Positions 8,895 through 31,942 are shown, numbered from the stretch's first letter. The stretch is DNA of 32,000 nt from Candidatus Saccharimonadota bacterium (GCA_049511795.1 JBEKXS010000002.1:1-32000); one strand, 5' to 3'. Made by a program: numbers and translations. Notes: generated by a model not told the origin, from the sequence alone.

Positions 8895-10919
8895 ATGGCA
8901 ACTAAAAGAGGGCTTAATGCAATTCTCATTCTTTCTGTTCTGTTTGTTTTAGTCATTGTTCCTCTTACTTCTGCTGACATAATTATCAATCAACAACCTG
9001 CCAATGTTTACAATCTTGGAGATACAGCTACAATTCCTGTAACAATAAAAACAGCATCAAATGTTGAAGGAATTTTTTACATGGACCTTATCTGCAATGG
9101 CAATGAAATAAATTTCTATAAGGACGGTGTTCAGCTTGCTGCAGGGCAGGAAAAAAATGAGCAGGCATCTTTGGTTTTGTCAAGAACAATTATCGGAAAT
9201 AGTCTTGGAGACTGCACAATAAAGGCATATTTGGGCAGTGATTATTCTCTGACAAGCGCTTTTCAAATCTCTGATGCAATAACAATCACAAGCAACCTTT
9301 CGCAGACAAGCTTTAATCCAGGAGACATAGTATTCATAAAAGGTGTAGCAACAAAGGAAAACCAGAATCCTGCAAATGGTTATGCAGAAGTAATCTTGAT
9401 GGATGGAAATGCAACAATTCTTTCGCAAAACGGAACAGTAAATAATGGATTTTTTTCCTTGAACTTAAGCCTTCCAAACGATACTGCATCAGGAAGTTAT
9501 CTAGTAAGGACAAATGTTTATGAAGAAGATCTTTTAGGCATAACAACAAATCATGGCTCACAGGACAACAACATTTTTGTAAACCAGGTTCCAACAAGTC
9601 TTGAAATTGTTTTCCAAAATCCACAAGTAATGCCTGGAACAGACATGAGTGTTAAGGAAACTCTTTATGATCAAACAGGAATTAAAATAGACACAACAGG
9701 ATTTTTGACAGTAAAAGATAATAACAACAAAATAATTAATCAGGTGCAGGTTTCAACAGACAACTTCACAAATTTCTCAATTGCATCTGACCAGGCACCT
9801 GCAAACTGGACAGTTGTCGCTGTCTCAAACAGGCTTACGAGTGATTCAACATTCACAATCTTGGAAAATGAAAACATAAGCACGACAATAATAAATAATA
9901 CAATCACGATAGCAAACACAGGAAATGTTGTATTCAACAAAACAATTCTTGTTAAAGTGGGAAACCAAAGCTTGAACCTTGATGTTTATCTTCCTGTTGA
10001 CCAAAGCCAGAAATGGGTTTTGACAGCACCAGACGGACAGTACAATGTTCAGGTAATTAATAACGGAGCAATAACAGGAGCAGTTGTTGGCTTGACAGGA
10101 AGCAGTGTAGACATTCAAAAAGCAGGCACTGATTTCTTGAGCATTGTGAAACTTCCTATTGTTTGGGGATTCATGATCTTAATTTTGGGTGCTTTTGCAT
10201 TCATTTTATTCAGAAGAAACTACCAAAAAAATTTTATAGGGTATGCGCCTATATCTTCTAGTAATAAAGGAGGGGCAAGTATTATAGAAAAAAATAAAGG
10301 CATGGACTTAACAATTTATAATCCAAAAAGCAGCAGAGCAGAAGTTGCAATTTCAATAAAAGGCGACAAGCAAGAAGTCAGTGTTTTAGCAGTCAACATA
10401 AAAAACATGATTTCAATCAAGCACACAAAGGGAAGTGGTGGAGAAGAAGTTCTTCAGAAAATAATATCAGCAGCAGAAGACCAGAAAGCTGCAACATATG
10501 ACAATCAAGATTATCTTTACTTCATTTTCGCTCCTGTAAGAACAAAAACATTCACCAATGAAACAACTGCCTTAAGAGCAGCTCAGAAAATAAAGGAGAT
10601 TCTTGACAGCCATAACAGGATTTCAAGGCAGAAGATTGAATTTGGAATCTCTCTTAACTATGGAGAAATAATTGCAAAGCAGGAGCCAGACGTTTTCAAG
10701 TTCATGGGAATGGGAAATCTCATGACAAGGTCAAAAAGAATAGCTTCACTTGCGCAGAATAATATACTCCTTTCTGAAAAAATGACAGACAGGGTAAGGA
10801 CTTCTGTAAGAGTTGAAAAGCTTAAGGTAGATGATTTGGATGTTTATGCACTTACAGAGATGAAGGACGCAAGCAGGAATGAAAAGTTCCTTAAGGGCTT
10901 CATGAAAAGAAATGGTTAA
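8895..10919 (+). CDS. Receptor-like type I membrane protein: signal peptide, glycosylated Ig-like ectodomain, one TM, cytoplasmic cyclase-homology-like domain
   Basis: 674 aa.
- Signal peptide: ..LVIVPLTSA/DII.
- Ectodomain: about 400 aa with more than 10 N-x-S/T sequons.
- TM segment: IVWGFMILILGAFAFILF, about aa 420-440.
- Cytoplasmic part (about aa 480-660) lines up by eye with class III cyclase blocks: VSVLAVNIKNM, QDYLYFIFAP, EFGISLNYGEIIAK, FMGMGNLMTRSKRIASLA..ILLSEKM. Confidence 0.7.
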   Translation: MATKRGLNAILILSVLFVLVIVPLTSADIIINQQPANVYNLGDTATIPVTIKTASNVEGIFYMDLICNGNEINFYKDGVQLAAGQEKNEQASLVLSRTIIGNSLGDCTIKAYLGSDYSLTSAFQISDAITITSNLSQTSFNPGDIVFIKGVATKENQNPANGYAEVILMDGNATILSQNGTVNNGFFSLNLSLPNDTASGSYLVRTNVYEEDLLGITTNHGSQDNNIFVNQVPTSLEIVFQNPQVMPGTDMSVKETLYDQTGIKIDTTGFLTVKDNNNKIINQVQVSTDNFTNFSIASDQAPANWTVVAVSNRLTSDSTFTILENENISTTIINNTITIANTGNVVFNKTILVKVGNQSLNLDVYLPVDQSQKWVLTAPDGQYNVQVINNGAITGAVVGLTGSSVDIQKAGTDFLSIVKLPIVWGFMILILGAFAFILFRRNYQKNFIGYAPISSSNKGGASIIEKNKGMDLTIYNPKSSRAEVAISIKGDKQEVSVLAVNIKNMISIKHTKGSGGEEVLQKIISAAEDQKAATYDNQDYLYFIFAPVRTKTFTNETTALRAAQKIKEILDSHNRISRQKIEFGISLNYGEIIAKQEPDVFKFMGMGNLMTRSKRIASLAQNNILLSEKMTDRVRTSVRVEKLKVDDLDVYALTEMKDASRNEKFLKGFMKRNG

Positions 10920-10939
10920 GGATTAATTCTAAATTAAAA

Positions 10940-11746
10940 TTATTTTTTCTGTTTTTCTTTGTTGGTTTCTTTAGGTTTGTGCCATATCCTAAATCCAATT
11001 CCAGTCAAGAGTAAAACAGTTCCAAGAATTAATGAAAACCAGAAAGTAATGTTTGCAGTAGCCAAAAATATACTAAGCAAAGAGCCAAATTGGCCAAGCA
11101 TGTTTGCAACTGTCTTTATTACCTGTGAAACAAATATTCCAGAGGCAATAAGAAGGGTTCCTATTATTATTGAAGCATTTGCCTTTCTTTGTGCAGCCCA
11201 GAAAAGAAGAGCAATCAGCAAAAGTGTAACAATAACAGCAAGATAAAACTTACCCATGAAATACTGCTGCGACATTTCTGAAACAAGGAAAGTTGGTGGA
11301 TTTACAGTTGAAAAACACTGCGTGAAGCTGCAATTGTATTGTTTGTAGTAAAAAGCAGATACAATGCTGTCAAGGCTTTGATTTATTATTTGTTGAGCAG
11401 AATTAGAGCTTGAAAAATTTACGCTACTGCAAGGAATGCTAATGCTGTATCCTCCAGAGCTATAATTGTAAACATATCCTGGATTTGCTTGGCAGAAAGC
11501 TTTTGCCTGGTCTGTTGCACTTTGTGCATATTGTGTTATGTTTACGTTTTGTGTAACAGCTGAAGGAAGAATGTTATTTGCTCCTGTGCTTGTTCCTGAT
11601 AAATCCTGAACAAGGGGGTACAATCCCGCTTTAACATTGTCATATTTCAATGATGTTCCCAAAACAAATAATGTATTTGAAGCAATTAATGAAACAAAAA
11701 GAAGTATGCTAAGCAAAACAATAGCTAGCACTCTTAAAAAACCCAT
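10940..11746 (-). CDS. Integral membrane protein with a Cys-containing extracellular loop
   Basis: 268 aa. An N-terminal TM segment, an extracellular segment of about 140 aa with 6 Cys and several sequons, then 3-4 C-terminal TM segments and a Lys-rich tail. A TTTATAAA box at 11768-11775 lies 29 nt upstream. Confidence 0.65.
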   Translation of the reverse strand: MGFLRVLAIVLLSILLFVSLIASNTLFVLGTSLKYDNVKAGLYPLVQDLSGTSTGANNILPSAVTQNVNITQYAQSATDQAKAFCQANPGYVYNYSSGGYSISIPCSSVNFSSSNSAQQIINQSLDSIVSAFYYKQYNCSFTQCFSTVNPPTFLVSEMSQQYFMGKFYLAVIVTLLLIALLFWAAQRKANASIIIGTLLIASGIFVSQVIKTVANMLGQFGSLLSIFLATANITFWFSLILGTVLLLTGIGFRIWHKPKETNKEKQKK

Positions 11747-11818: not shown

Positions 11819-14302
11819 ATGCTGGTGAAAAAAAGAGGCGCTGATTCTAAAACAGAATTCGTGAAATGGTTTTCTGAATTAAACAAGAGCTCTGGCAAGG
11901 TTTCTGGCGGAAAGGGAGCGAACCTAGCAGAAATTTTCAATCTTCATGTTCCTGTTCCTCCTGGATTTATAATAACAGCGCAGGCATATGATTACTTCAT
12001 AAAAAAAGCTGGAATCGATGCAAAAATAAAATCTCTTCTTGAAAAAATAAATTATGAAGATACAAAAGAGCTTGACAAGATAACAAAGCAAATCAGGGAA
12101 ATGATAGAAAGTGCAAAATACACAGAAGAGATGAAGGAAGAAATTCTGGAAGCATATGAAATACTTGGAACAGAAGGAAAAGATGTAAAAGAAGGCGAAG
12201 CAAGCACTGTTTTGGCTTCTTCCCAAAAAAATGTTTTTGTTGCAGTAAGAAGCAGTGCAACAACAGAAGATTTGGCAGAGGCAAGTTTCGCAGGCCAGCA
12301 GGAAAGCTTCCTTAATGTGAAAGGAAAGGAAGAGCTTTTGACTTCGATAAAAAAATGTTTTGCTTCTCTTTTCACTCCGAGGGCAACATATTACAGGAAC
12401 AAAAAAGGATTTGGTAATGAAGGCGTTAGTCTTGCAGTTGTTATCCAAAGAATGATTAATTCAGAAAAATCAGGAGTTATTTTTACAAAGGATCCTTCAA
12501 TGAACCGTGATGGTGTTGTAATAGAAGCTGTATGGGGACTTGGAGAAGGAATTGTTTCTGGAAGAATCACGCCAGACAGATATCTTGTGAAAAATGAGAA
12601 AATAAAGGAAAAGGAAACAGCAGAAAAGAAAATCGCATTCATTAGGGATTCGGAAGGAAAGACAAAAATAATAAAACTTAAGGAAGAAAAATCAAAAGAA
12701 AATGTCCTGAAAGAGCATGAAACGATAAGGCTTGCAGATATAGCATTAAAGCTCGAAGCTCATTACAAAAAGCCTCAGGATATAGAATTCGCAATAGAAA
12801 ATGGCGAGATTTTTATTGTTCAAACAAGACCAATAACAACATTGGGAAAAACAGGGGGTTTAAAGGAAGGAAAAGAAATCAAAGGCCAGGTTGTTCTCAC
12901 AGGTCTTGCAGCTTCTCCAGGCATAGGCTCTGGAAAAGTAAAAATTGTTCACAAAATAGAAGATTTGGATAAAATCGAGAAAGGAGATATTCTTGTGACA
13001 GAAATGACAAATCCAGATATGGTTGTCACAATGCAGCGCTGTTCTGCTATTGTTACAGATGAAGGGGGAATAACAGCACATGCAGCAATTGTCTCAAGGG
13101 AAATGGGAATTCCTGCAGTTGTTGGAACAGAAGAAGCTACAAAAAAACTTGAAGAAGGTGAAATCATAACTGTTGATGGTTTCAATGGCAAAGTTTACAG
13201 GGGAAAAGTTTCTGAAACAGTGCAAAAAGAAATAAGGCCTGTTGTCCATAAAACAAAAACAAGAATAAAAGTTATCATCGACCTGCCAACATATGCAGAG
13301 CATGCTTCTAAAACAGGGTTGAAAGGAATTGGTCTTGCAAGAATTGAAGGAATAATTGCAGAATCTGGAAAACATCCCTACTATTTCTTGGAAAAAGGCA
13401 AAATGAAAGATTATGAGGAAATTATTTTCCGTGGAATTAAAAAGCTGGCGGAATATTTTGATGAGATATGGGTAAGAACTTCTGATATAAGAAGCGACGA
13501 GTTCCAGAACCTTGATGGTGCTCCTAAAAAAATCGAGGCAAATCCAATGCTTGGAATGCACGGCATCCGCTTCTCGCTAAAAAATCCTGAAATTCTCAAG
13601 GCAGAAATAAAAGCAATGAAGCGTGTTTCAGAGCATGACAAAGGAAAAACAATAGGTCTTATGTTCCCCCAAATTATATCTGTTGATGAAGTGAAAAAAG
13701 CAAAAGAAATTGTGAAAGAAGTTGGATTCCAAAAAGCAAAAATTGGGATTATGGTTGAAACTCCTGCAGCTGTCCAGGTAATAAATGAAATATGCGCAGA
13801 AAAAATTGATTTCATTTCTTTTGGTACAAATGACTTAACTCAGTTCACGCTTGCAATCGACCGTGGCAACGAACAGGTTCAGGATTTGTACAATGAAATG
13901 AACCCAGCTATTCTTCATCAGCTTGCAACTGTTATAAGAGCATGCAAAAGAAACAATGTTGAAACAAGCATCTGCGGGCAATCTGGCAGCAAAAAAGAAA
14001 TGGTTAAGTTTCTTGTTGAAAACGGTATTGACAGCATAAGTGTTAATTCAGATGTTGCAGCAGATATTGCAGAATATGTTTCCGAGCTTGAAAAGGTGGG
14101 GAACAAAAGCAGCAAAAGTGAGCACAGAAATTATGAGCCACTAGATGAGCGTCCGCCAAAGAAAATTGACAAAGAATTAAGGGAAGAAAAGCCTGTTTAT
14201 GAGGAAGATATATCAAAAGAAGATTTGCCTGTAATTCCAGGTACAGAAGCAGACAGTGTAAAAGATGGAATGGATCCTCTTGAAAGCAATGATGTGTTTT
14301 AG
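11819..14302 (+). CDS. ppsA: Phosphoenolpyruvate synthase (pyruvate, water dikinase)
   Basis: 827 aa.
- N-terminal ATP-grasp domain with GGKGANLAE.
- Swivelling phosphohistidine domain: TDEGGITAHAAIVSREMGIPAVVG.
- C-terminal PEP-utilising barrel: FISFGTNDLTQ.
- An acidic C-terminal extension of about 65 aa. Confidence 0.9.
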   Translation: MLVKKRGADSKTEFVKWFSELNKSSGKVSGGKGANLAEIFNLHVPVPPGFIITAQAYDYFIKKAGIDAKIKSLLEKINYEDTKELDKITKQIREMIESAKYTEEMKEEILEAYEILGTEGKDVKEGEASTVLASSQKNVFVAVRSSATTEDLAEASFAGQQESFLNVKGKEELLTSIKKCFASLFTPRATYYRNKKGFGNEGVSLAVVIQRMINSEKSGVIFTKDPSMNRDGVVIEAVWGLGEGIVSGRITPDRYLVKNEKIKEKETAEKKIAFIRDSEGKTKIIKLKEEKSKENVLKEHETIRLADIALKLEAHYKKPQDIEFAIENGEIFIVQTRPITTLGKTGGLKEGKEIKGQVVLTGLAASPGIGSGKVKIVHKIEDLDKIEKGDILVTEMTNPDMVVTMQRCSAIVTDEGGITAHAAIVSREMGIPAVVGTEEATKKLEEGEIITVDGFNGKVYRGKVSETVQKEIRPVVHKTKTRIKVIIDLPTYAEHASKTGLKGIGLARIEGIIAESGKHPYYFLEKGKMKDYEEIIFRGIKKLAEYFDEIWVRTSDIRSDEFQNLDGAPKKIEANPMLGMHGIRFSLKNPEILKAEIKAMKRVSEHDKGKTIGLMFPQIISVDEVKKAKEIVKEVGFQKAKIGIMVETPAAVQVINEICAEKIDFISFGTNDLTQFTLAIDRGNEQVQDLYNEMNPAILHQLATVIRACKRNNVETSICGQSGSKKEMVKFLVENGIDSISVNSDVAADIAEYVSELEKVGNKSSKSEHRNYEPLDERPPKKIDKELREEKPVYEEDISKEDLPVIPGTEADSVKDGMDPLESNDVF

Positions 14303-14321: not shown

Positions 14322-14329
14322 TTTATAAA
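14322..14329 (+). promoter_or_regulatory. TTTATAAA box 30 nt upstream of the ATG at 14352
   Basis: Exact consensus box. Confidence 0.5.
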
Positions 14330-14351: not shown

Positions 14352-14981
14352 ATGGCTAAAAAGACTTTTTCTAAGATGAAAAAAGGGGTAAAGGCAAAAA
14401 GCATAAAGAAAAAACTAAACCCTGGAGCAAAATCAACAGAGGTAGTTTATCATTCAACAAAGGAAATAAAAGTTGAGAAAGCGCTTATTGACAATTTTAT
14501 AGGTCTGCAAAAAGTTATGGTTGGTCTTTCAACTAAATTTGATAGTCTTTCTGACCAGATATCAAAGCTCCTTGACCTTTTCGAGATTTCTGCAAAATCG
14601 CTTGCAAGAAAAGAGCTTTCATCTCCGGGAACTATAAATACTCAAGCAAACCAGGCAGATGCAAGAAGAATATTGGACAGGCTTGATAATATTTCAAAAC
14701 AGGCCGGACTGATTGGAAGAGGCCTTGCATTAATTCACGAAGTAGGAACAGAAAATGCAAATCCTGTAATTCCCTTAAATATTAACAAGAATAGATTAAA
14801 TCTAGGAACAATGCCAGCGATAAGCAAGCCTTTCCCAACAATGCCGAAGACAGACCAGTCAGTGCCTGCACCTTCAGATTCAGGTTCTGACCAAACGAAC
14901 TCGGCACCAGCAAAAAAAATGACAATGGAACTTGACAGTTTTGAAAAATCATCATCAAGAGACAGCAATAATGTGCCTTAG
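14352..14981 (+). CDS. Hypothetical protein: Lys-rich N-terminus, predicted coiled-coil segment, disordered S/P/N-rich C-terminus
   Basis: 209 aa. ..EKALIDNFIGLQKVMVGLSTKFDSLSDQISKLLDLFEISAKSLARKE.. shows heptad-like spacing. It is followed 3 nt later by the next ORF, so the two are probably co-transcribed. Confidence 0.55.
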   Translation: MAKKTFSKMKKGVKAKSIKKKLNPGAKSTEVVYHSTKEIKVEKALIDNFIGLQKVMVGLSTKFDSLSDQISKLLDLFEISAKSLARKELSSPGTINTQANQADARRILDRLDNISKQAGLIGRGLALIHEVGTENANPVIPLNINKNRLNLGTMPAISKPFPTMPKTDQSVPAPSDSGSDQTNSAPAKKMTMELDSFEKSSSRDSNNVP

Positions 14982-14984
14982 AAA

Positions 14985-15755
14985 ATGTTGGAGCAGACTT
15001 CAAATGATTTCAGGGAAAGATTTCTTCTAAAATTGACAAAAGAGATAATTGAAAATACAAATTATTACCGCGGATTCAAAGTTAATTTTGAAGCACAAAA
15101 CCTTTTCAGGGCAAAACAGGGAAATAAGGAAGACGAGAGAAAGATTTTGGGAATTTTGAACGCTCCAAAAACACTTGACATAGAAAGGCACAATCAAGCA
15201 ATGATTAAAAAGCAGAAAGAAGAAATCAAGGCAAGCATTAAGGACAAAATAAAAGATGAGTCTGAAAAACTTTCTGAGATGAAAAAAAGCAACCTTGCAG
15301 AAGAGCTCAGCTCTTTTTCAAGAAAATTCCAGAGGCCAATGTTTGTTCCATTTGGACAGCCAGGCTCTGTATTTCAAAGAAGATTCCAGCCATTAATGAT
15401 ACCTGAGCAGCCTCTTCCAGAAACAGTAAGCTATGTAAGACCAATTGCAACTTCTGAAGAAATAGATTTGGGAAGAGTAAATATTCTTATACATGACCCG
15501 TTAGTTAAAATTATAGAATGTGATGGTCCTAATGACAATGTTTATGTTATGGGCATTATGGGAAGAAAGAAAACCCCGATAAAGCTCAGCAAAGAGGAAA
15601 TAGAGCAGGTTGTAAAATCTTTTTCTGAGTCTGCAAAAATACCAAGCACAGAAGGCCTCTTCAAGGCAGCTGTGGGAAATCTCGTAATTTCAGCTGTTAT
15701 TTCAGACATAGCAGGAATACAGTTTATTATAAGAAAAATTGCCCCGGAATTCTAA
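14985..15755 (+). CDS. Protein resembling only the N-terminal (pre-Walker A) domain of archaeal FlaI/PilB-type secretion ATPases
   Basis: 256 aa. The C-terminal approximately 95 aa read LGRVNILIHDPLVKIIECDGPNDNVYVMGIMGRKKTPIKLSKEEIEQVVKSFSESAKIPSTEGLFKAAVGNLVISAVISDIAGIQFIIRKIAPEF. This follows the remembered FlaI pattern G.i.pLm.DP.iEDIsCDG....VYV.....g...Tni.f..eEeld.fi..la...gk.is...p..da.l......fTIRKF. The protein stops right after the IRK motif. There is no P-loop. Confidence 0.55.
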   Translation: MLEQTSNDFRERFLLKLTKEIIENTNYYRGFKVNFEAQNLFRAKQGNKEDERKILGILNAPKTLDIERHNQAMIKKQKEEIKASIKDKIKDESEKLSEMKKSNLAEELSSFSRKFQRPMFVPFGQPGSVFQRRFQPLMIPEQPLPETVSYVRPIATSEEIDLGRVNILIHDPLVKIIECDGPNDNVYVMGIMGRKKTPIKLSKEEIEQVVKSFSESAKIPSTEGLFKAAVGNLVISAVISDIAGIQFIIRKIAPEF

Positions 15756-17152
15756 TAATTATAATTTCCGTAAAGGCCACTAACATTCTGTGCAGAAGGA
15801 TTTTGCTGAGAAAGGCTTGCTGCAATGTCTTTAAGGAATTTTATTCTGTCTTCTCCCATTAATGAATTCAATGTTGCATTATCCAAATTAGAAGGATAAG
15901 AATTCTCAATCCAGTATGTTCCTATTTCATATCTTACAACAATGAATCCGTTTAATGCTTGTGCTTCTGTAACCTGCACAGAAATATTTCCAAATTCATT
16001 AATCAATGTATTTTTTTCAGCATCTGTCAATACAAGATTTTGAGTTATAATTGGTGTTGTATTTTCTTGAGGAATAATATTTGTCTCATTTGAAGTTGGT
16101 GTTTGTGGAGAAGTTCCTGTGACTCCTCCTTGGCTTAAGTCTGTATCTATTGAAACTATTTCCTGGCCATTGTATAATATTCCAACATGCATTGGTCCTT
16201 GCTGAAGAGATGAAAGATTCAGCTGATTAAGATTTATTGAAATATCTTTTGTATCTGTTCCTGTGAAATCGCTTCCAAAGCCTTGCTCTTGGGTTGAATA
16301 ACTTGATGTGACAGAAACAATGTTTCCATTTGTTGTTAAGCTGATTGTATTGTCTGGAAGTTGTTGGCCAGAATCAGTATGAACACTAGTTGGTTTTATT
16401 TCAGCTATTTCTCCAGGCTGTAATGTATATGTAAATGTCTGATTCCAAGAAACATTTCCTGTAACTTCATTTTGGAATTGAACAACAGCATGTCCTGTAG
16501 GAGTTAATCCCAGGAAGAAGTTTGCAACAACTCCAATCAAACCAGTTCCATTTGAATTATTATCTTGTGTTGTTAATGGACTGTTTTCTGCAGGCGTTGA
16601 ATTTTCAGTTGGAGTTGTGTTTTCTGTGCCTGAACTAGAAACTTCTGAACTGTTTGTTGAAGAAATTATTAAAGTAAATTGAATATCTGGATAAACAGTT
16701 TTTGTTCCAGCAAGACCAAAACCATCGCCAGAACCGCCTATATTTTGCCCATTAACAAAATAATTTCCCTGTGATGTTTGTTCAGAAACCAAGCTGCTTA
16801 AAGGATACTGATAAGTTTGCCCTCCATTCTCAAAAACAACATTTGAAGAAGCAGGTATAAGTTCACCTTGATTCAATGAAATTTTTAGTTGCCCATCAAG
16901 TGTTTTTCCTTCCTGATAATTTGCATTCAGGTTGAGTATTGCATGACCTGTTGAACTACCATGTCCTTGCCCAATAAGATATGCTCCAAAAATTATGACC
17001 AATGCAACAGGGATTATCCATGCAAACTTTCCCAAAGAAAGTTTTTTCTGACCCTGATATTCAGAAACAACTTTTCCGTCAACTCTTTTGCTTTGGTAAA
17101 GGTAAGGACCGTAAAGCTTGCCGTCTTTTTTTATGTACTTTTCATAAGCCAT
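15752..17152 (-). CDS. Type II membrane-anchored surface protein with T/P/N/E-rich linkers
   Basis: 466 aa.
- Cytoplasmic N-terminus: MAYEKYIKKDGKLYGPYLYQSKRVDGKVVSEYQGQKK.
- One TM segment: FAWIIPVALVIIFGAYLI.
- Large ectodomain with many sequons and linkers such as GTENTTPTENSTPAENSP.
- The stop codon overlaps the convergent stop of 14985..15755. Confidence 0.65.
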   Translation of the reverse strand: MAYEKYIKKDGKLYGPYLYQSKRVDGKVVSEYQGQKKLSLGKFAWIIPVALVIIFGAYLIGQGHGSSTGHAILNLNANYQEGKTLDGQLKISLNQGELIPASSNVVFENGGQTYQYPLSSLVSEQTSQGNYFVNGQNIGGSGDGFGLAGTKTVYPDIQFTLIISSTNSSEVSSSGTENTTPTENSTPAENSPLTTQDNNSNGTGLIGVVANFFLGLTPTGHAVVQFQNEVTGNVSWNQTFTYTLQPGEIAEIKPTSVHTDSGQQLPDNTISLTTNGNIVSVTSSYSTQEQGFGSDFTGTDTKDISINLNQLNLSSLQQGPMHVGILYNGQEIVSIDTDLSQGGVTGTSPQTPTSNETNIIPQENTTPIITQNLVLTDAEKNTLINEFGNISVQVTEAQALNGFIVVRYEIGTYWIENSYPSNLDNATLNSLMGEDRIKFLKDIAASLSQQNPSAQNVSGLYGNYNY

Positions 17153-17214
17153 TGTGTAGGGTAACTAACTTACAATAAGAAATTTAGAATATATTTAAAG
17201 GTTTCTCGGATTTT

Positions 17215-18312
17215 TTATTGCCCGCAGTTTGGGGCTCCCCAAATGTTATATCTTTCACTAGAACTTATATTTGCAAGAGTGTTACCAGAAGGAATATACA
17301 GACCTACTTCAGACATGTTAATATCAGGATAATAAAATGCAGAAGAAATCCCAAAGCAGTTCTGTTCATTAGAACCTGTAAAATTTACTGAATAAGTTGT
17401 ATAACCACTTAAATTGTCTTGATTTTTTGGAAGACTATCACTCTGAAATCTATTTGCACTTCTAGTTTGGGGCCATACTAAAGAAATTATTCCTGTATTT
17501 ATTGGGGGATTTAGATTACACCCGCCTGAACCATCTGCTGTGTATCCTTGAGGACATTGACAGTTAATCTGGCATTTGTATCCTCCATCACAAACTACAC
17601 CTGAATCTTCAGAGCCAGGAGTCCATGTTCCATTACATGAAGAAGGAATAGTACAGTCTACAGGGCAGTTACCTGGAGTTTCCCCTAATGATACCTCACA
17701 AATTCCATTTCCGCAAACAGCTCCACCAGGACCAGTACAATCTATAGGGCAATTTGAAGCAGTTTCTCCTGTTTCACAAATTCCATTTCCGCAAACAGCT
17801 CCACCACCAGTATTTCCACCTGTTCCGCCTGCAGGTGGTGTTCCGCTTATTGTTGCAGTGTCTGTTGGATTTCCGACTGTATTCTGTCCTGAAACAATAT
17901 AAATAGGCGCAACAGAAACGGTATCACCTGCGCTGATTCCAGGAATCTGTGAAGAAGTAAAAGTAAATGTTCTTGTATCCAATTCATTTATTGAAACATT
18001 TTCATCAACACTTACACTTTGTGTATTATTTATAAAAACAAATTTCATTCCGCCCAAAGTTCCTCCGCCTGCGCTTCTTCTTACAGTAACTAAAATGTTT
18101 GATCCAGAAACATATGCAGATTTTATCGCTATATCAAAAGTGAACTGATTAAGATTAACCTGTTTTGAGCCGCTTGAAATAATATTATTAACAACAACCC
18201 AAATAGCGCCTATAGCAACAAGTGCAAGAAGAATAAGAATTAAACTTGAAACAACTGTAGACAAACCAGAATTATTTTTTTTAAGATTAAAAATATTCCT
18301 CTTTTTACGCAT
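17215..18312 (-). CDS. Archaeal type IV pilin-like protein (class III signal peptide) with tandem Cys-rich CGNGICE modules
   Basis: 365 aa. The N-terminus MRKKRNIFNLKKNNSG/LSTVVSSLILILLALVAIGAIWVVV matches the archaeal pilin N-terminal pattern: a charged n-region, a small residue, then about 20 hydrophobic aa. Two tandem modules read AVCGNGICE(x4-6)GE(x3)NCP(I/V)DCT. A further Cys-rich segment follows (CNGTW..CDGGYKCQINCQCPQGY..GGC). Confidence 0.65.
   Translation of the reverse strand: MRKKRNIFNLKKNNSGLSTVVSSLILILLALVAIGAIWVVVNNIISSGSKQVNLNQFTFDIAIKSAYVSGSNILVTVRRSAGGGTLGGMKFVFINNTQSVSVDENVSINELDTRTFTFTSSQIPGISAGDTVSVAPIYIVSGQNTVGNPTDTATISGTPPAGGTGGNTGGGAVCGNGICETGETASNCPIDCTGPGGAVCGNGICEVSLGETPGNCPVDCTIPSSCNGTWTPGSEDSGVVCDGGYKCQINCQCPQGYTADGSGGCNLNPPINTGIISLVWPQTRSANRFQSDSLPKNQDNLSGYTTYSVNFTGSNEQNCFGISSAFYYPDINMSEVGLYIPSGNTLANISSSERYNIWGAPNCGQ
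17697..17806. repeat. Perfect 32-bp direct repeat (two copies, 78-bp period) inside the pilin-like gene
   Basis: cacaaattccatttccgcaaacagctccacca occurs at 17697-17728 and again at 17775-17806. On the minus strand it encodes the GGAVCGNGICE core of each 26-aa module. Confidence 0.9.
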
Positions 18313-18333
18313 TGCTAAAAAAAGACAAAGCTC

Positions 18334-18341
18334 TTTATAAA
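18334..18341 (-). promoter_or_regulatory. TTTATAAA box 29 nt upstream of the ATG at 18312
   Basis: Exact consensus box. Confidence 0.5.
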
Positions 18342-18353
18342 ATTACCGAACAT

Positions 18354-18674
18354 TTATGATGCTGGAGCTGTTGTTCCTGTTGTTGGGGCTGTCTGTGCTG
18401 CTGCGTTTTGCTGTTGTGCCTGTTGCAAACATTCAAGTGCTACCAAATGTATTGTCTGGTTTCCTACAGGCAAAGCGAAGGTCTGACATTGACCTACAGT
18501 GTTCACAATCTGGGAAAGCACATAATTTGCTCCCTGGACTGCGCCTTCATTCTGCTTCTGAACAGTGTATCCAGAAATTGCAGGCTGTATCACAAAGGCA
18601 TATATCATAACCAATGCCATAATGACAACAACTAAAGCAAGAACAGTTATCCAAATGCTTTTTGTATCTGCCAT
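18354..18674 (-). CDS. Small N-terminally anchored protein, possibly pilin-like
   Basis: The track ORF starts at a TTG (18677). The next codon is an ATG (18674), which sits 29 nt from a TTTTTAAA box, so I call 106 aa. The sequence begins MADTKS-IWITVLALVVVIMALVMIYAFVI. It continues as a short ectodomain with 2 Cys and ends in a Q/A/T-rich tail. Confidence 0.5.
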   Translation of the reverse strand: MADTKSIWITVLALVVVIMALVMIYAFVIQPAISGYTVQKQNEGAVQGANYVLSQIVNTVGQCQTFALPVGNQTIHLVALECLQQAQQQNAAAQTAPTTGTTAPAS

Positions 18675-18695
18675 CAATAGATTAAATAAAAGCTG

Positions 18696-18703
18696 TTTAA
18701 AAA
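18696..18703 (-). promoter_or_regulatory. TATA-like box (TTTTTAAA on the minus strand) 29 nt upstream of the ATG at 18674
   Basis: Spacing rule. It supports the ATG start rather than the TTG start. Confidence 0.45.
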
Positions 18704-18762
18704 ACTTATGTTGCTGTAACAGTTATAATCTTTAATAATAAAAATTAGTAAGTAAAAGTAGT

Positions 18763-19521
18763 CTAACTGTTCGTTGTTATCTCAACCATTGTTATTACAT
18801 CTCTCCAAGCAACATTTCCAGTGTTTGTTGCGACGACCGAAATAACATCGCCTGCCTGGAAATTAACAATTCCTTTTTCCTGAACATCATAGTCTTTCTT
18901 CATTCCAATTGCTGTTGCGTCTATTGTGTTGCCGAAACTTATTGGCTGCCCATTCTTGAGTATTACAATATTTATTTCTCCAGGATTTCCCTGAATGACT
19001 TCAAGGTTTGTTGATATTGCAGTTATGCTTCCGTCTCTAGGCATAACATATCCTTTTGAATCACTTGTCTGAACTCCTGCTCCTGTATTCAAAAATCCAG
19101 ATTGATTCATTATTCCACTGTATCCAAAGTCCAAGAAATTTCTCTTGTCGCTTGCAACAATCAAATCCCCTTGTGCCTTAAGCTGCTCAAGTGAATATGC
19201 GACGACATAAACCTGTTTGTTCTGGTTGTTTTGTGAATAATTTATCTGGTAAATTGCAAGATTATTGTCATTGACATTTTTTATATTGACTTCTTTTGGA
19301 AGAGAATTGAAATCAACCTGACCAACTCCTGTTATTGAATTCTGATCTATTCCTCTTTTAGATGCAAATTGTGCTACAAAGCCAGAAACCTGACTGCTAA
19401 GCTGTCCTATAACACTGCTGTTTGTCTGTGAGTTTACGTTTGTTGCTTCTGCAGAAATAACAAAAGCACCTATTGCAAGAACCAGCAAGACAACAATTAT
19501 TCCTAAAAATATTTTCCTCAT
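18763..19521 (-). CDS. Secreted hypothetical protein
   Basis: 252 aa. Sec-type signal MRKIFLGIIVVLLVLAIGAFVISAEA/T, followed by beta-rich sequence. Confidence 0.65.
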   Translation of the reverse strand: MRKIFLGIIVVLLVLAIGAFVISAEATNVNSQTNSSVIGQLSSQVSGFVAQFASKRGIDQNSITGVGQVDFNSLPKEVNIKNVNDNNLAIYQINYSQNNQNKQVYVVAYSLEQLKAQGDLIVASDKRNFLDFGYSGIMNQSGFLNTGAGVQTSDSKGYVMPRDGSITAISTNLEVIQGNPGEINIVILKNGQPISFGNTIDATAIGMKKDYDVQEKGIVNFQAGDVISVVATNTGNVAWRDVITMVEITTNS

Positions 19522-25387: not shown

Positions 25388-25645
25388 CTACTTTCTTCCT
25401 GACTTAACAATAAGCAGAATAATCAAAATAATCAAAAGAGCCAGTGAAAGGAATCCAAATACTATAAACAATATTTCAAAAAGATTGAAGAAAATTGAAT
25501 GTTCAGTTGAAAGGAAAAAAAATCCAAGTGAGACTATAAAAAGAATTAAAAAAAGTACAAGATTCTTCCATAGAATATGTATCCTTCTTTGCAACGGACT
25601 GTTGTCCTCTCTTTGCCTCACCACTCTTCTTTTTCTTCTAGGCAT
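25388..25645 (-). CDS. Small membrane protein (Arg-rich N-terminus, 2 TM segments)
   Basis: 85 aa. I chose it over the overlapping plus-strand ORF for two reasons. It has clean TM segments, and an exact TTTATAAA box (25667-25674) lies 29 nt upstream of its ATG. Confidence 0.55.
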   Translation of the reverse strand: MPRRKRRVVRQREDNSPLQRRIHILWKNLVLFLILFIVSLGFFFLSTEHSIFFNLFEILFIVFGFLSLALLIILIILLIVKSGRK

Positions 25646-25666
25646 TGTAATATATAGTTATTTTAG

Positions 25667-25674
25667 TTTATAAA
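25667..25674 (-). promoter_or_regulatory. TTTATAAA box 29 nt upstream of the ATG at 25645
   Basis: Exact consensus box. Confidence 0.5.
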
Positions 25675-25688
25675 GATTACTCGAAGCG

Positions 25689-25946
25689 TTAGCCGGTAGT
25701 GCCATTAGAAATATTATTTACAGCAGGATTTGAAGCTGCATTCATGTTTTTTTCAGGAAGCCAATCAACTTTAATGACATATGAAGTCACGTCAACAGCT
25801 TTGTTAAAAAGATTTCCCAACCATGCAGAGTAATCTTGAAAAAAAGTCTGCCTTTCAGTAGAAACTGCTAAATGAAGATTCTGGTTGCTGATTATAAATA
25901 ATGCGCCGAGAAATAAAAGTTTTACAATAAGTATGGGAATTTTCAT
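25689..25946 (-). CDS. Small secreted or anchored protein with a C-terminal PAVNN motif
   Basis: 85 aa. Signal or anchor MKIPILIVKLLFLGALFIIS. The C-terminus is ..NPAVNNISNGTTG. The ATG lies 1 nt after the stop of the upstream gene. Confidence 0.5.
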   Translation of the reverse strand: MKIPILIVKLLFLGALFIISNQNLHLAVSTERQTFFQDYSAWLGNLFNKAVDVTSYVIKVDWLPEKNMNAASNPAVNNISNGTTG

Positions 25947-25947
25947 T

Positions 25948-26238
25948 TTATCCTGTAGAATTATTTACAGCAGGTCCAATTACCTTTCCTGTAAACTGGA
26001 AAACATTTGTAACAAGTCCTTTAATCCACAAAAAATATCCTTTGAATGAGGAAAATACATTATCAATTGATGAAAATGAGAAATTAGAGCCGCTTACAAA
26101 AAGAAAAACAACAAATAGTATAAAAAGAACTCCAATAAGGATGAAAAAGAAAGCAAACTGTGTCCTTAAATGACTTAATTTAAGAAGTATGTAGATAATT
26201 ATAACTGCGGCAATTGCGATTATCAAAAAAGTATTCAT
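25948..26238 (-). CDS. Small membrane protein (2 TM segments) with a C-terminal PAVNN motif
   Basis: 96 aa. The C-terminus is ..GPAVNNSTG. A TTTTTATA box (plus-strand 26260-26267) lies 29 nt upstream. Confidence 0.55.
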   Translation of the reverse strand: MNTFLIIAIAAVIIIYILLKLSHLRTQFAFFFILIGVLFILFVVFLFVSGSNFSFSSIDNVFSSFKGYFLWIKGLVTNVFQFTGKVIGPAVNNSTG

Positions 26239-30631: not shown

Positions 30632-31942
30632 ATGGGCTATGACATAACAGTTGGAAGAGATGTTTCTGACAAAAAATCATTTGGTAACCGTGGTTTAGTT
30701 TATGTTGGTAAAGGTTATGTTAAAATGGGGCAATACACTTCCTTAAGCAATAAAATTTTCATGGACGTGGCCCGTTCTCATGTTATTCTTGTGGCTGGAA
30801 AAAGAGGCTCGGGAAAATCATATACTCTTGGCGTCATAGCAGAAGAGCTTTCTGCACTTCCAAAAGAAGCAAGCCAGAACATTGGCTCATTAATTTTTGA
30901 TACAATGGGAATTTACTGGACAATGAAATTCAAGAATGAAAAAGACAAGGACCTTTTGGCTGAATGGGGCCTTAAGCAAAAAAATCTTCCTGTAAAAATA
31001 TTTGTTCCTTTCGGTCATTATAATACTTATCTTGAAAAGGGCATTCCGGCAGATGAAACTTTTGCTTTGGATGTTAATGAATTAAATCCAGAAGACTGGA
31101 TTCTTACTTTTGGCCTTGAATTGATTAATCCTATTTCAGTTGTTATACAAAGGGTTCTTACAAGATTAAAAGAGCAGGGAGCTTATGACCTTGATGATAT
31201 TATTGTTGCGTTGGATTCAGATGAAAAAACTCCCCAGGAAATAAAAAATGCAGCCAGTGGTTTATTCGAAGCTGCAAATACATGGGGAATTTTTGCAAAA
31301 AAAGGAGAAGAAGCAACAAAAGTTGAGCAGCTTGTTTCAGCAGGGATTACAACTGTCTTGGATCTTAGCGTTTACAATTCTGTTGGTGTTTTTAACATCA
31401 GAGCTCTGGCAATAAGCCTTCTTTGTAGAAAAATTTTCAACCAAAGAATGGATTCAAGAAAAGAAGAGGAAACAGAGTCAGTTGCGCAAGGCCTTGACTA
31501 TCTTTCAAGAAGCATAAAAAAAGACAATCCTCTTGTCTGGATTTTTATTGATGAAGCTCACGAATTTCTGCCTTTGAACGGAAAAACAGTTGCAACAGAT
31601 GCTCTGATTCAATTATTGAGAGAAGGGAGGCAGCCTGGAATTTCTCTTGTTCTTGCAACACAGCAACCAGGGCAAATACATCATGATGTCATGACACAAT
31701 CAGATATTGTTATAGCTCATCGTGTGACTTCCAAGCCAGATATAGAAGCATTGAATTACATAATGCAGTCATATGTTCTTGAAAGCATAAAAAAGCAGAT
31801 GGATGATCTTCCTGCTTTGAAAGGTTCTGCTGTTCTTCTTGACGACAATTCAGAGCGTCTTTATCCAATAAGAGTAAGGCCAAGATTTACCTGGCATGGT
31901 GGAGAAGCGCCAACTGCAATCAAGGCAGAGAAGAAACTCTGA
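30632..31942 (+). CDS. HerA/FtsK-like P-loop ATPase (DUF87-type)
   Basis: 436 aa. Walker A is VAGKRGSGKSYTLG and Walker B is VWIFIDEAHEF. The later motif LVLATQQPG is typical of HerA/VirB4-like ATPases. Confidence 0.7.
   Translation: MGYDITVGRDVSDKKSFGNRGLVYVGKGYVKMGQYTSLSNKIFMDVARSHVILVAGKRGSGKSYTLGVIAEELSALPKEASQNIGSLIFDTMGIYWTMKFKNEKDKDLLAEWGLKQKNLPVKIFVPFGHYNTYLEKGIPADETFALDVNELNPEDWILTFGLELINPISVVIQRVLTRLKEQGAYDLDDIIVALDSDEKTPQEIKNAASGLFEAANTWGIFAKKGEEATKVEQLVSAGITTVLDLSVYNSVGVFNIRALAISLLCRKIFNQRMDSRKEEETESVAQGLDYLSRSIKKDNPLVWIFIDEAHEFLPLNGKTVATDALIQLLREGRQPGISLVLATQQPGQIHHDVMTQSDIVIAHRVTSKPDIEALNYIMQSYVLESIKKQMDDLPALKGSAVLLDDNSERLYPIRVRPRFTWHGGEAPTAIKAEKKL

Follow-up and report, generated by a model that had tools for sequence, protein, structure and literature searches.

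Loci for archaeal type IV pili combine genes for an ATPase, a platform protein and pilins with genes for cytoplasmic coiled-coil accessory proteins that are thought to be regulatory, as described in a 2016 census (PMC4858521), and field studies have reported pilin-like genes and pili in ultra-small prokaryotes (PMC9938205). A stand-alone N-terminal domain of a type IV pilus motor is not described in the literature examined, including the passages searched in that census (PMC4858521). Here we analyzed a stretch of 5.2 kb (positions 14352 to 19521) in a window of 32,000 nucleotides, which comprises the whole of GCA_049511795.1 JBEKXS010000002.1:1-32000 and from whose first letter all positions are counted. 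Six consecutive genes in this stretch, here called P1 to P6, had been proposed to constitute a single novel cell-surface appendage locus. The parts list of that original prediction was right, P3 to P6 are envelope proteins, P4 is pilin-like and P2 is motor derived; the joint machine was only partly supported. With moderate confidence, we read the stretch as two separate, vertically inherited neighboring modules inside a frozen block of housekeeping genes: P1-P2 (module A) and P3 to P6 (module B). The features on which the analysis is based are as follows.

14322..14329, plus strand: TATA-like element TTTATAAA, read from the sequence, 22 nt before the start codon of P1
14352..14981, plus strand: P1, 209 amino acids (aa), cytoplasmic
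14985..15755, plus strand: P2, 256 aa, cytoplasmic; conserved helices at the N terminus, a long helix with many charges (64-101), a linker rich in Pro and a C-terminal domain
15390..15752, plus strand: C-terminal domain of P2 (about residues 136-256), homologous to N2, the N-terminal domain of secretion ATPases of the FlaI/GspE/VirB11 type
15752..17152, minus strand: P3, 466 aa, envelope protein rich in Ser/Thr/Asn, anchored in the membrane in N-in orientation, three extracellular regions being conserved
17051..17152, minus strand: N-terminal motif of P3 (residues 1-34), cytoplasmic, ahead of the transmembrane (TM) segment (about 43-63), with 15 invariant alignment columns
17215..18312, minus strand: P4, 365 aa, type-IV-pilin-like, with a large C-terminal extension
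17218..17826, minus strand: residues 163-365 of P4, a candidate binding head: two Cys-rich CGNGICE..NCP.DC repeats, a Cys-rich knot that is conserved, and the C-terminal beta domain with ..CGQ at its end
17851..18312, minus strand: pilin module of P4 (residues 1-154), with a class III signal peptide, a hydrophobic alpha-helix (18-48) and a beta-sandwich (61-154)
18354..18674, minus strand: P5, 106 aa, N-in, with an N-terminal TM anchor
18763..19521, minus strand: P6, 252 aa, with a Sec-type signal (..ISA↓EA, the arrow marking the cleavage site) followed by a conserved domain of ~200 aa
19522..19613, no strand: divergent intergenic region between P6 and the DUF357 gene, with TATA-like elements facing both ways; right-hand border of the slot that holds P3 to P6, conserved in 49 loci

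With the pilins of the archaeal type IV pilus and the archaellum, P4 has in common the class III signal, a hydrophobic helix at the N terminus and a beta-sandwich; P2, in its C-terminal domain, has a homologue of the N-terminal domain of the ATPase (FlaI/ArlI type) of these systems. However, neither the locus nor its 72 relatives carry an ATPase core, a platform or a peptidase nearby, only one of the four envelope proteins is pilin-like, and the two halves are convergent and evolutionarily separable. P2 has the same fold as the N-domains of Archaeoglobus fulgidus GspE (2oap) and Sulfolobus acidocaldarius FlaI (4ii7/4ihq), with a shared signature around D-P-x-V..I-E/x..G, but it is a stand-alone protein of ~250 aa in which a conserved, helical, charged half comes first and which ends in ..FIIRK, without Walker A/B, Asp-box or His-box. 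For its part, P4 (residues about 17-154) found its best structural match in a flagellar-like archaeal type IV pilin of Pyrobaculum calidifontis (8fk7), to whose architecture it adds ~200 aa of Cys-rich repeats plus a second beta domain. P4 also resembles the components of the Sulfolobus bindosome (Bas) and other class-III-signal proteins that form no filament, being a large extracellular protein with a pilin-type signal and anchor, although a solute-binding domain is missing from it and its surroundings contain neither ATPase nor platform genes of the BasE/BasF type. Finally, P1 recalls arCOG07564 of haloarchaea and the FlaC/D/E coiled-coil accessories, which in the census are small intracellular helical proteins encoded beside pilus-related genes (PMC4858521), but it shows no significant sequence similarity to them and is paired with an ATPase-less domain protein instead of a motor.

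Six consecutive genes had been predicted, and this was borne out: six open reading frames (ORFs) were read from the window sequence at the coordinates and strands given above, and the JGI gene calls on the 90-kb source contig, 3300017941 Ga0187850_10000165, coincide with all of them. This contig comes from peat, and SRR7027xxx runs carry it in identical form. A P2 profile retrieved 74 loci from the GTDB species representatives, and iterated hidden Markov model searches were run over the ORFs of these loci; counts are given over 72 loci (one per species). Homologues were present in 66 loci for P1, 72 for P2, 38 for P3, 27 for P4, 31 for P5 and 27 for P6. The six genes are thus real genes and not chance ORFs, and all are intact across dozens of species. 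None of the six proteins scored above threshold in a Pfam scan. The assignment to the envelope held for P3 to P6; P1 and P2 are cytoplasmic. The relatives all originate from metagenome-assembled genomes (MAGs) of Pacearchaeota, Woesearchaeota or Nanoarchaeota, and the P3 protein is identical to an NCBI entry labelled 'Candidatus Pacearchaeota archaeon'. A small archaeon of the DPANN type is therefore the right frame, and the host is predicted from these relationships to be of the Pacearchaeota type (Nanoarchaeota in GTDB); of the putative episymbiotic small archaeon proposed originally, the small DPANN-type archaeon is upheld by the MAGs of the relatives. Pacearchaeota and Woesearchaeota are abundant, uncultured archaea with small genomes. 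The remaining window contains archaeal housekeeping genes, namely those for Thr-, Tyr/Trp- and Phe-tRNA synthetases, phosphoenolpyruvate (PEP) synthase, RNase P p30, replication factor C (RFC) and tRNAs.

The conserved gene order was g674, g268, PEP synthase, P1 and P2, followed on the opposite strand by P3, P4, P5 and P6, and then by DUF357, an amino-acid kinase, RNase P p30 and the Phe-tRNA synthetase (PheRS) genes. When synteny was checked across relatives, as the original prediction had suggested, co-localization was not lost: the genes stay together in the 72 species, and reverse look-ups from distant P3 or P4 homologues found P1 and P2 within 10 kb in all five testable loci, in two of which the P4 homologue lay beyond the PEP synthase gene. 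The genes on either side (PEP synthase, DUF357, amino-acid kinase, RNase P p30 and PheRS) were, nevertheless, at least as syntenic as P1 to P6. Synteny is therefore no proof of a functional link here and reflects a frozen gene order, the whole region being a frozen block of housekeeping genes.

The content of the slot between P2 and DUF357 was analyzed in the 49 loci with both borders. The slot was empty in 17 of them and occupied in 32. All four genes were present in 10 loci, and the filling was partial in the other 22: P3, P5 and P6 in eight loci, P3 and P6 in five, P4 and P5 in four, P3, P4 and P5 in two, and P4, P5 and P6, P3 alone and P5 alone in one locus each. P4 was thus found in 17 of the 32 occupied slots, whereas P1-P2 was kept in every species. 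The slot states were scattered over the P2 tree, which argues for an ancestral cassette and repeated loss. The comparison showed that module B is ancestral in the slot but has undergone many complete or partial losses, whereas module A has been retained throughout; since module A persists where module B is gone, it does not depend on it. A few species have, after P2, not P3 to P6 but giant LamG-like surface proteins that are unrelated to them and reach 2888 aa, partial (L052:10763-20612, L070 and L062), and the slot looks like a hot spot for surface-protein genes. Putative TATA-like elements, read from an AT-rich genome, lie about 25-40 nt before the start codon of each cassette gene. A scan for sigma-70 promoters and intrinsic terminators, which is unsuited to archaea, gave counts equal to those of shuffled sequences.

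The protein common to all the loci, P2, had been predicted to be an ATPase-less FlaI/PilB N-domain protein, and four lines of evidence agreed on this. NCBIfam gave a weak match to positions 101-208 of FlaI (E 4.6e-4). Against the PDB, the full-length profile was weak (E 0.1), whereas a profile trimmed to the C-terminal domain had FlaI (E 0.008) and A. fulgidus GspE (afGspE; E 0.012) as its best sequences. The AlphaFold2 (AF2) model reached a predicted local distance difference test score (pLDDT) of about 90 over residues 165-255, and a Foldseek search with the domain rendered the N-domain of afGspE (2oap) at E 1.2e-5, with a root mean square deviation of 1.9 A and 22% identity over 98 columns, followed by CpaF/TadA, VirB11, PilT, PilB and EpsE. 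Model, Foldseek and profile thus concur that P2 contains the N2 domain fold of the PilT/VirB11/FlaI superfamily. A TM-like segment suggested by the Kyte-Doolittle (KD) scan at residues 225-249 was rejected as a membrane helix, as it corresponds to the buried beta-sheet of this domain.

P2 stops at the boundary between the N-domain and the ATPase core, 5 residues past the conserved IRK strand, which leaves no room for a Walker A/B core, and its 256 aa contain no RecA-like domain, Walker A, Walker B, Asp box or His box. The 78 close homologues, all unannotated, are about 230-260 aa long; in their alignment the middle is variable and charged, while the C-terminal ~120 residues are strongly conserved and close with ..F-I-I-R-K. 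The domain alignment has 22 invariant columns, with 50-70% identity to the window copy. An exhaustive search with the domain profile yielded 1612 cluster representatives, of which 1481 had E values of 1e-10 or lower; in each of the 150 best of the 1612, the length was 137-321 aa and the domain was C-terminal. This stand-alone family is covered by no model in Pfam or NCBIfam. Since P2 and the best 150 representatives end without the core, P2 is a relative of the N-domain of the ATPase family and not a member of the family itself. The homology of its C-terminal ~120 residues to the N-terminal domain of the FlaI/GspE/VirB11-type ATPases is confirmed, and its derivation from a pilus or archaellum motor ATPase is supported; having no nucleotide-binding core, P2 cannot power anything.

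P1 adjoins P2 in 66 of the 72 loci. The gap between them is 3 nt in the window, and the two genes are separated by at most 5 nt or overlap in 55 of the 66 loci, in agreement with the predicted cotranscription; as judged from this spacing, P1 and P2 form an operon and are translationally coupled. The TATA-like element upstream of P1 is a candidate promoter of its own for this operon, with the reservation that the genome is AT rich. P1 has a Lys-rich N-terminal tail and a core of two amphipathic helices at about residues 41-131, together with a linker rich in Pro and Gln and, at the C terminus, the motif E-G-Y-Q-K-S-I-S; both the core and this motif are kept in the homologues. The helices show a periodicity of 3.4-3.6 residues, equalled by 3% and 1% of shuffled sequences, and the coiled coil proposed originally is plausible. 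No TM segment was found in P1. Its profile (22 sequences) gave nothing significant against the PDB and Pfam, the top hits being designed helical filaments at E 1.1, and three of the 22 relatives had a weak FlaC_arch match (E 0.069).

In module B, the signal of the window copy of P4 reads ..N-N-S-G↓L-S-T-V-V, with Ser at -2 instead of Lys/Arg, and the family consensus is [KR]G↓[LIM]S followed by ~22 hydrophobic residues, Gly16 (-1) and Ser18 being invariant; these are the class III signal features of an archaeal type IV pilin. TIGR02537, the N-terminal model of archaellins and type IV pilins, matched 27 of 40 P4 relatives (best E 7.3e-6), with the window copy at 16.2 bits, under the cut-off of 20. 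In the AF2 model, helix 18-48 is followed by strands at 61-154 with a pLDDT of about 90, the Cys-rich stretch is poorly predicted, and the C-terminal beta domain exceeds 90. The best Foldseek match was the P. calidifontis pilin (8fk7_A; E 4e-5, TM-score of 0.57 normalized to the pilin), ahead of FN3- and CBM-like sandwiches, and the helix-plus-sandwich architecture is that of an archaeal type IV pilin. Thus, P4 is a true archaeal type-IV-pilin-like protein with a class III signal, as had been claimed together with its Cys-rich modules; it contains 16 Cys. Myxococcus-type Cys-rich repeats occur in its relatives as TIGR02232 (12 of 40, best E 6e-14) and, in several, as PF13948; the window copy, with its two shorter CGNGICE..NCP.DC units, gave no such hit at E <=1. 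Eight of the 40 relatives had weak matches to the bindosome protein BasA (best E 2e-4), below any curated threshold. With this architecture, P4 would be less suited to the role of a major subunit than to that of a minor pilin, a tip pilin or an adhesin anchored by its pilin module.

The other three envelope proteins lack a class III signal, the [KR]G↓hydrophobic motif being absent from P3, P5 and P6. P3 has a single N-terminal TM segment and 13 N-x-S/T sequons compared to 8.0 expected from its composition, and its gene is convergent with P2 with a 4-bp overlap, in concordance with the anchored, glycoprotein-like protein expected. The best-conserved part of P3 is its near-invariant cytoplasmic motif, MAYxKYIKKxGKxYGPYxYxSKRVDGKVxSEYxG, which is confined to the P3 family among roughly 1000 genes of the related loci and implies some cytoplasmic partner; about eight P3 homologues do not have it. 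A P3 profile (28 sequences) found no match in the PDB or Pfam. The N-terminal anchoring of P5 and the secretion of P6 were predicted correctly, as shown by the TM anchor of the former and the Sec-type signal of the latter, whose relatives have the cleavage context ..V-F-A↓Q/E. Conserved in P5 are also a P-A-x-[ST]-G-Y motif, a G-N-Q-T sequon and, in most homologues, two Cys. The P6 profile gave only sub-threshold SH3-like matches; in seven of 22 homologues such matches fell on the conserved stretch D-Y-D-x-Q-S..F..G-D-V-I-S at the C terminus (window 18763-19000), which may form an SH3-like beta-barrel, as far as these matches suggest. A similar short motif was also observed just past the N-terminal TM segments of P3 (S-T-G-H-A-I-L, 16940-16960), P5 (A-I-S-G-Y-T-V, 18570-18590) and an unrelated 158-aa ORF at 2149-2625 (S-T-Q-G-Y-A-I). 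This motif is kept in the P3 and P5 families and may be a processing or sorting site.

None of the scanned window ORFs of 85 aa or more matched a T2SSE/PF00437-type ATPase, a T2SSF/FlaJ platform or an A24 (PibD/FlaK/EppA) peptidase, in agreement with the stated absence of PilC/FlaJ, prepilin peptidase and full ATPase genes. Similarly, within 10 kb in the 72 relatives there was no ORF with a GxTGSGK[TS] Walker A motif and no distant relative of the P2 domain, and the next 10 kb to the right of the window contained housekeeping genes only, with no ATPase core. The sole multi-TM neighbor, g268, had no Pfam match, and its candidacy as a divergent prepilin peptidase found no support. The variable insertions between g268 and PEP synthase in the relatives were also considered as a site for the machinery and discarded, since by their Pfam labels they hold LemA-like and peptidase-like housekeeping genes. 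In terms of a type IV pilus gene cluster, only the pilin with a class III signal is present, in P4 alone; the other three of the four defining features, namely ATPase core, platform and peptidase, are lacking. The description of the locus as no canonical pilus or archaellum operon that yet contains pieces of one, P4 as a pilin and P2 as an N-domain, was therefore accurate.

The preference for two modules over one is based on several observations. No species has lost P1-P2, whereas loss of the cassette is frequent; of the 32 occupied slots, 15 lack the pilin-like gene; transcription of the two modules converges; P1 and each cassette gene appear to have their own TATA-like elements, AT richness permitting; and a class III signal occurs in only one of the four cassette proteins. 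Module A, on the plus strand, is a translationally coupled cytoplasmic pair. In full-length secretion ATPases, the N-terminal domain packs against the ATPase core; P2, together with the amphipathic-helical P1, may act as an accessory, adaptor or regulator. Its docking partner would be an ATPase or platform of the type IV pilus kind, or else a different hexameric ATPase, the gene for which lies in another part of the genome. The envelope proteins of module B are encoded on the minus strand in the order P6-P5-P4-P3, each gene with a TATA-like element of its own. P6 is exported via Sec, and P5 and P3 are anchored by their N termini. P4 would be processed by a prepilin peptidase and would rely for its insertion on pilus machinery from another locus; with its Cys-rich and beta-sandwich head of ~200 aa, it might serve as a minor pilin, a tip pilin or an adhesin anchored through the pilin module. 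P3, P5 and P6 may be further fast-evolving surface (glyco)proteins for contact.

Several points weigh against this two-module interpretation. The partners it invokes are unseen, since neither an ATPase core nor FlaJ/TadC nor an A24 peptidase turned up in the window, in the 10 kb that follow it or at distances of up to 10 kb in the 72 relatives, and the function proposed for P1-P2 is deduced from one domain. The partner of the near-invariant P3 N terminus could be P1-P2, which would argue for one system, and the recovery of P1-P2 next to P3 or P4 homologues in all testable cases means that the linkage is very stable. The last two points also favor a single, integrated, motor-poor contact or adhesion apparatus, in which a P1-P2 base would grip the N terminus of P3 while P4, P5 and P6 would build or decorate the outside. 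P2 and the cassette are adjacent in 32 of the 49 two-border loci, in distant clades; the five reverse look-ups agree; the pilus-derived domain and the pilin lie 1.5 kb apart; and the best-conserved part of P3 is a cytoplasmic motif that needs a partner. However, P1-P2 is kept in the 17 loci with an empty slot, P4 is missing from nearly half of the occupied ones, about eight P3 homologues do without the motif, the two modules converge in transcription and have TATA-like elements of their own, housekeeping genes on the flanks are equally syntenic, and P3, P5 and P6 have no class III signal, which makes such an apparatus unlikely. The bolder version, in which P1-P2 would be the cytoplasmic part of an undescribed pilus-derived contact device of Pacearchaeota and Woesearchaeota, with P2 as the N-half of a split ATPase or as the adaptor of an ATPase encoded elsewhere to the P3 tail and P4, and with the six genes as one host-attachment system specific to these episymbionts, is rather improbable. 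The original proposal of one integrated appendage machine, a possible arrangement, is partly supported, and two adjacent modules fit the data better.

At the other extreme, P1-P2 might be unrelated to the envelope, the N-domain fold having been reused for cytoplasmic housekeeping or regulation, perhaps with PEP synthase, and the cassette being a mere neighbor. The PEP synthase gene precedes P1 in 56 of the 72 loci, with a spacer of <=60 nt in 40 of the 56 (median, 41 nt); the block is otherwise composed of tRNA synthetase, RNase P and replication genes, P1-P2 survives every cassette loss, and the strongly basic tail of P1 could bind nucleic acid. Nevertheless, a TATA-like element lies between PEP synthase and P1, several loci hold P1-P2 with no detectable adjacent PEP synthase gene (e.g., L039, L051 and L077), and the sequence-level similarity of P2 is specifically to the N-domains of FlaI/GspE. 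We know of no link between a secretion-ATPase N-domain and PEP synthase, and this explanation seems doubtful. Far less credible is a decayed ancestral type IV pilus operon, with P2 as a truncated ATPase gene, P4 as a leftover pilin and no joint function today. The exact end of P2 at the core boundary, the absence of platform and peptidase genes nearby and the erosion of the cassette in many lineages are what would be left by decay, but the P2 domain is strongly constrained, as its invariant columns and identity values and the 1481 clusters indicate, P2 has gained a conserved N-terminal half of its own and a fixed partner gene, and all six genes are intact ORFs across dozens of species.

Some further observations concern the neighboring genes. 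The PEP synthase (window 11819-14302) has an acidic, Pro-rich tail of ~76 residues past its last Pfam domain, and its homologues range from about 690 to >1000 aa; in most relatives, P1 comes after it at a highly regular distance of 30-42 nt. Upstream of it, g674 and g268 (window 8895-11746) are a conserved pair in 28-34 related loci and constitute further envelope genes of the frozen block: g674 encodes 674 aa with a Sec signal, a weak MG2-domain match and a second TM segment, and g268 a multi-TM protein of no family. The start of g674 in the window, MATKRG↓L.., made it a candidate for a second class-III-signal protein, which was rejected because its homologues bear ordinary Sec signals (..SA↓EIII). 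At 25388-26238, on the minus strand, tRNA-Thr and a YdjM-family gene flank three small tandem genes for membrane proteins of 85, 85 and 96 aa, two of which end in a similar ..P-A-V-N-N-(I)-S-x-G tail. Directly after two RFC subunit genes, positions 30632-31942 encode a HerA/DUF87-type ATPase with weak Zot and TrwB matches, which is not a secretion ATPase of the PilT/VirB11 family. Among the related loci, a 3.2-kb contig labelled 'uncultured Pirellulales bacterium' (L067; CAZKYP010000318.1) bears an archaeal PEP synthase-P1-P2 block and is probably mis-binned.

In general, the locus provides concrete candidates for cell attachment in Pacearchaeota and Woesearchaeota, namely P4, with its large putative binding head, and P3, P5 and P6. 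It also reveals a large family, unannotated and comprising 1612 clusters, in which the secretion-ATPase N-domain stands alone and is accompanied by a fixed helical partner. If P2 regulates or completes a pilus motor, this would be a new mode of control of type IV filament machines, and if it works elsewhere, it would be a clean case of domain reuse. For its part, the fixed slot, with the repeated loss and replacement of its surface genes, represents a hot spot of envelope evolution in these genomes.

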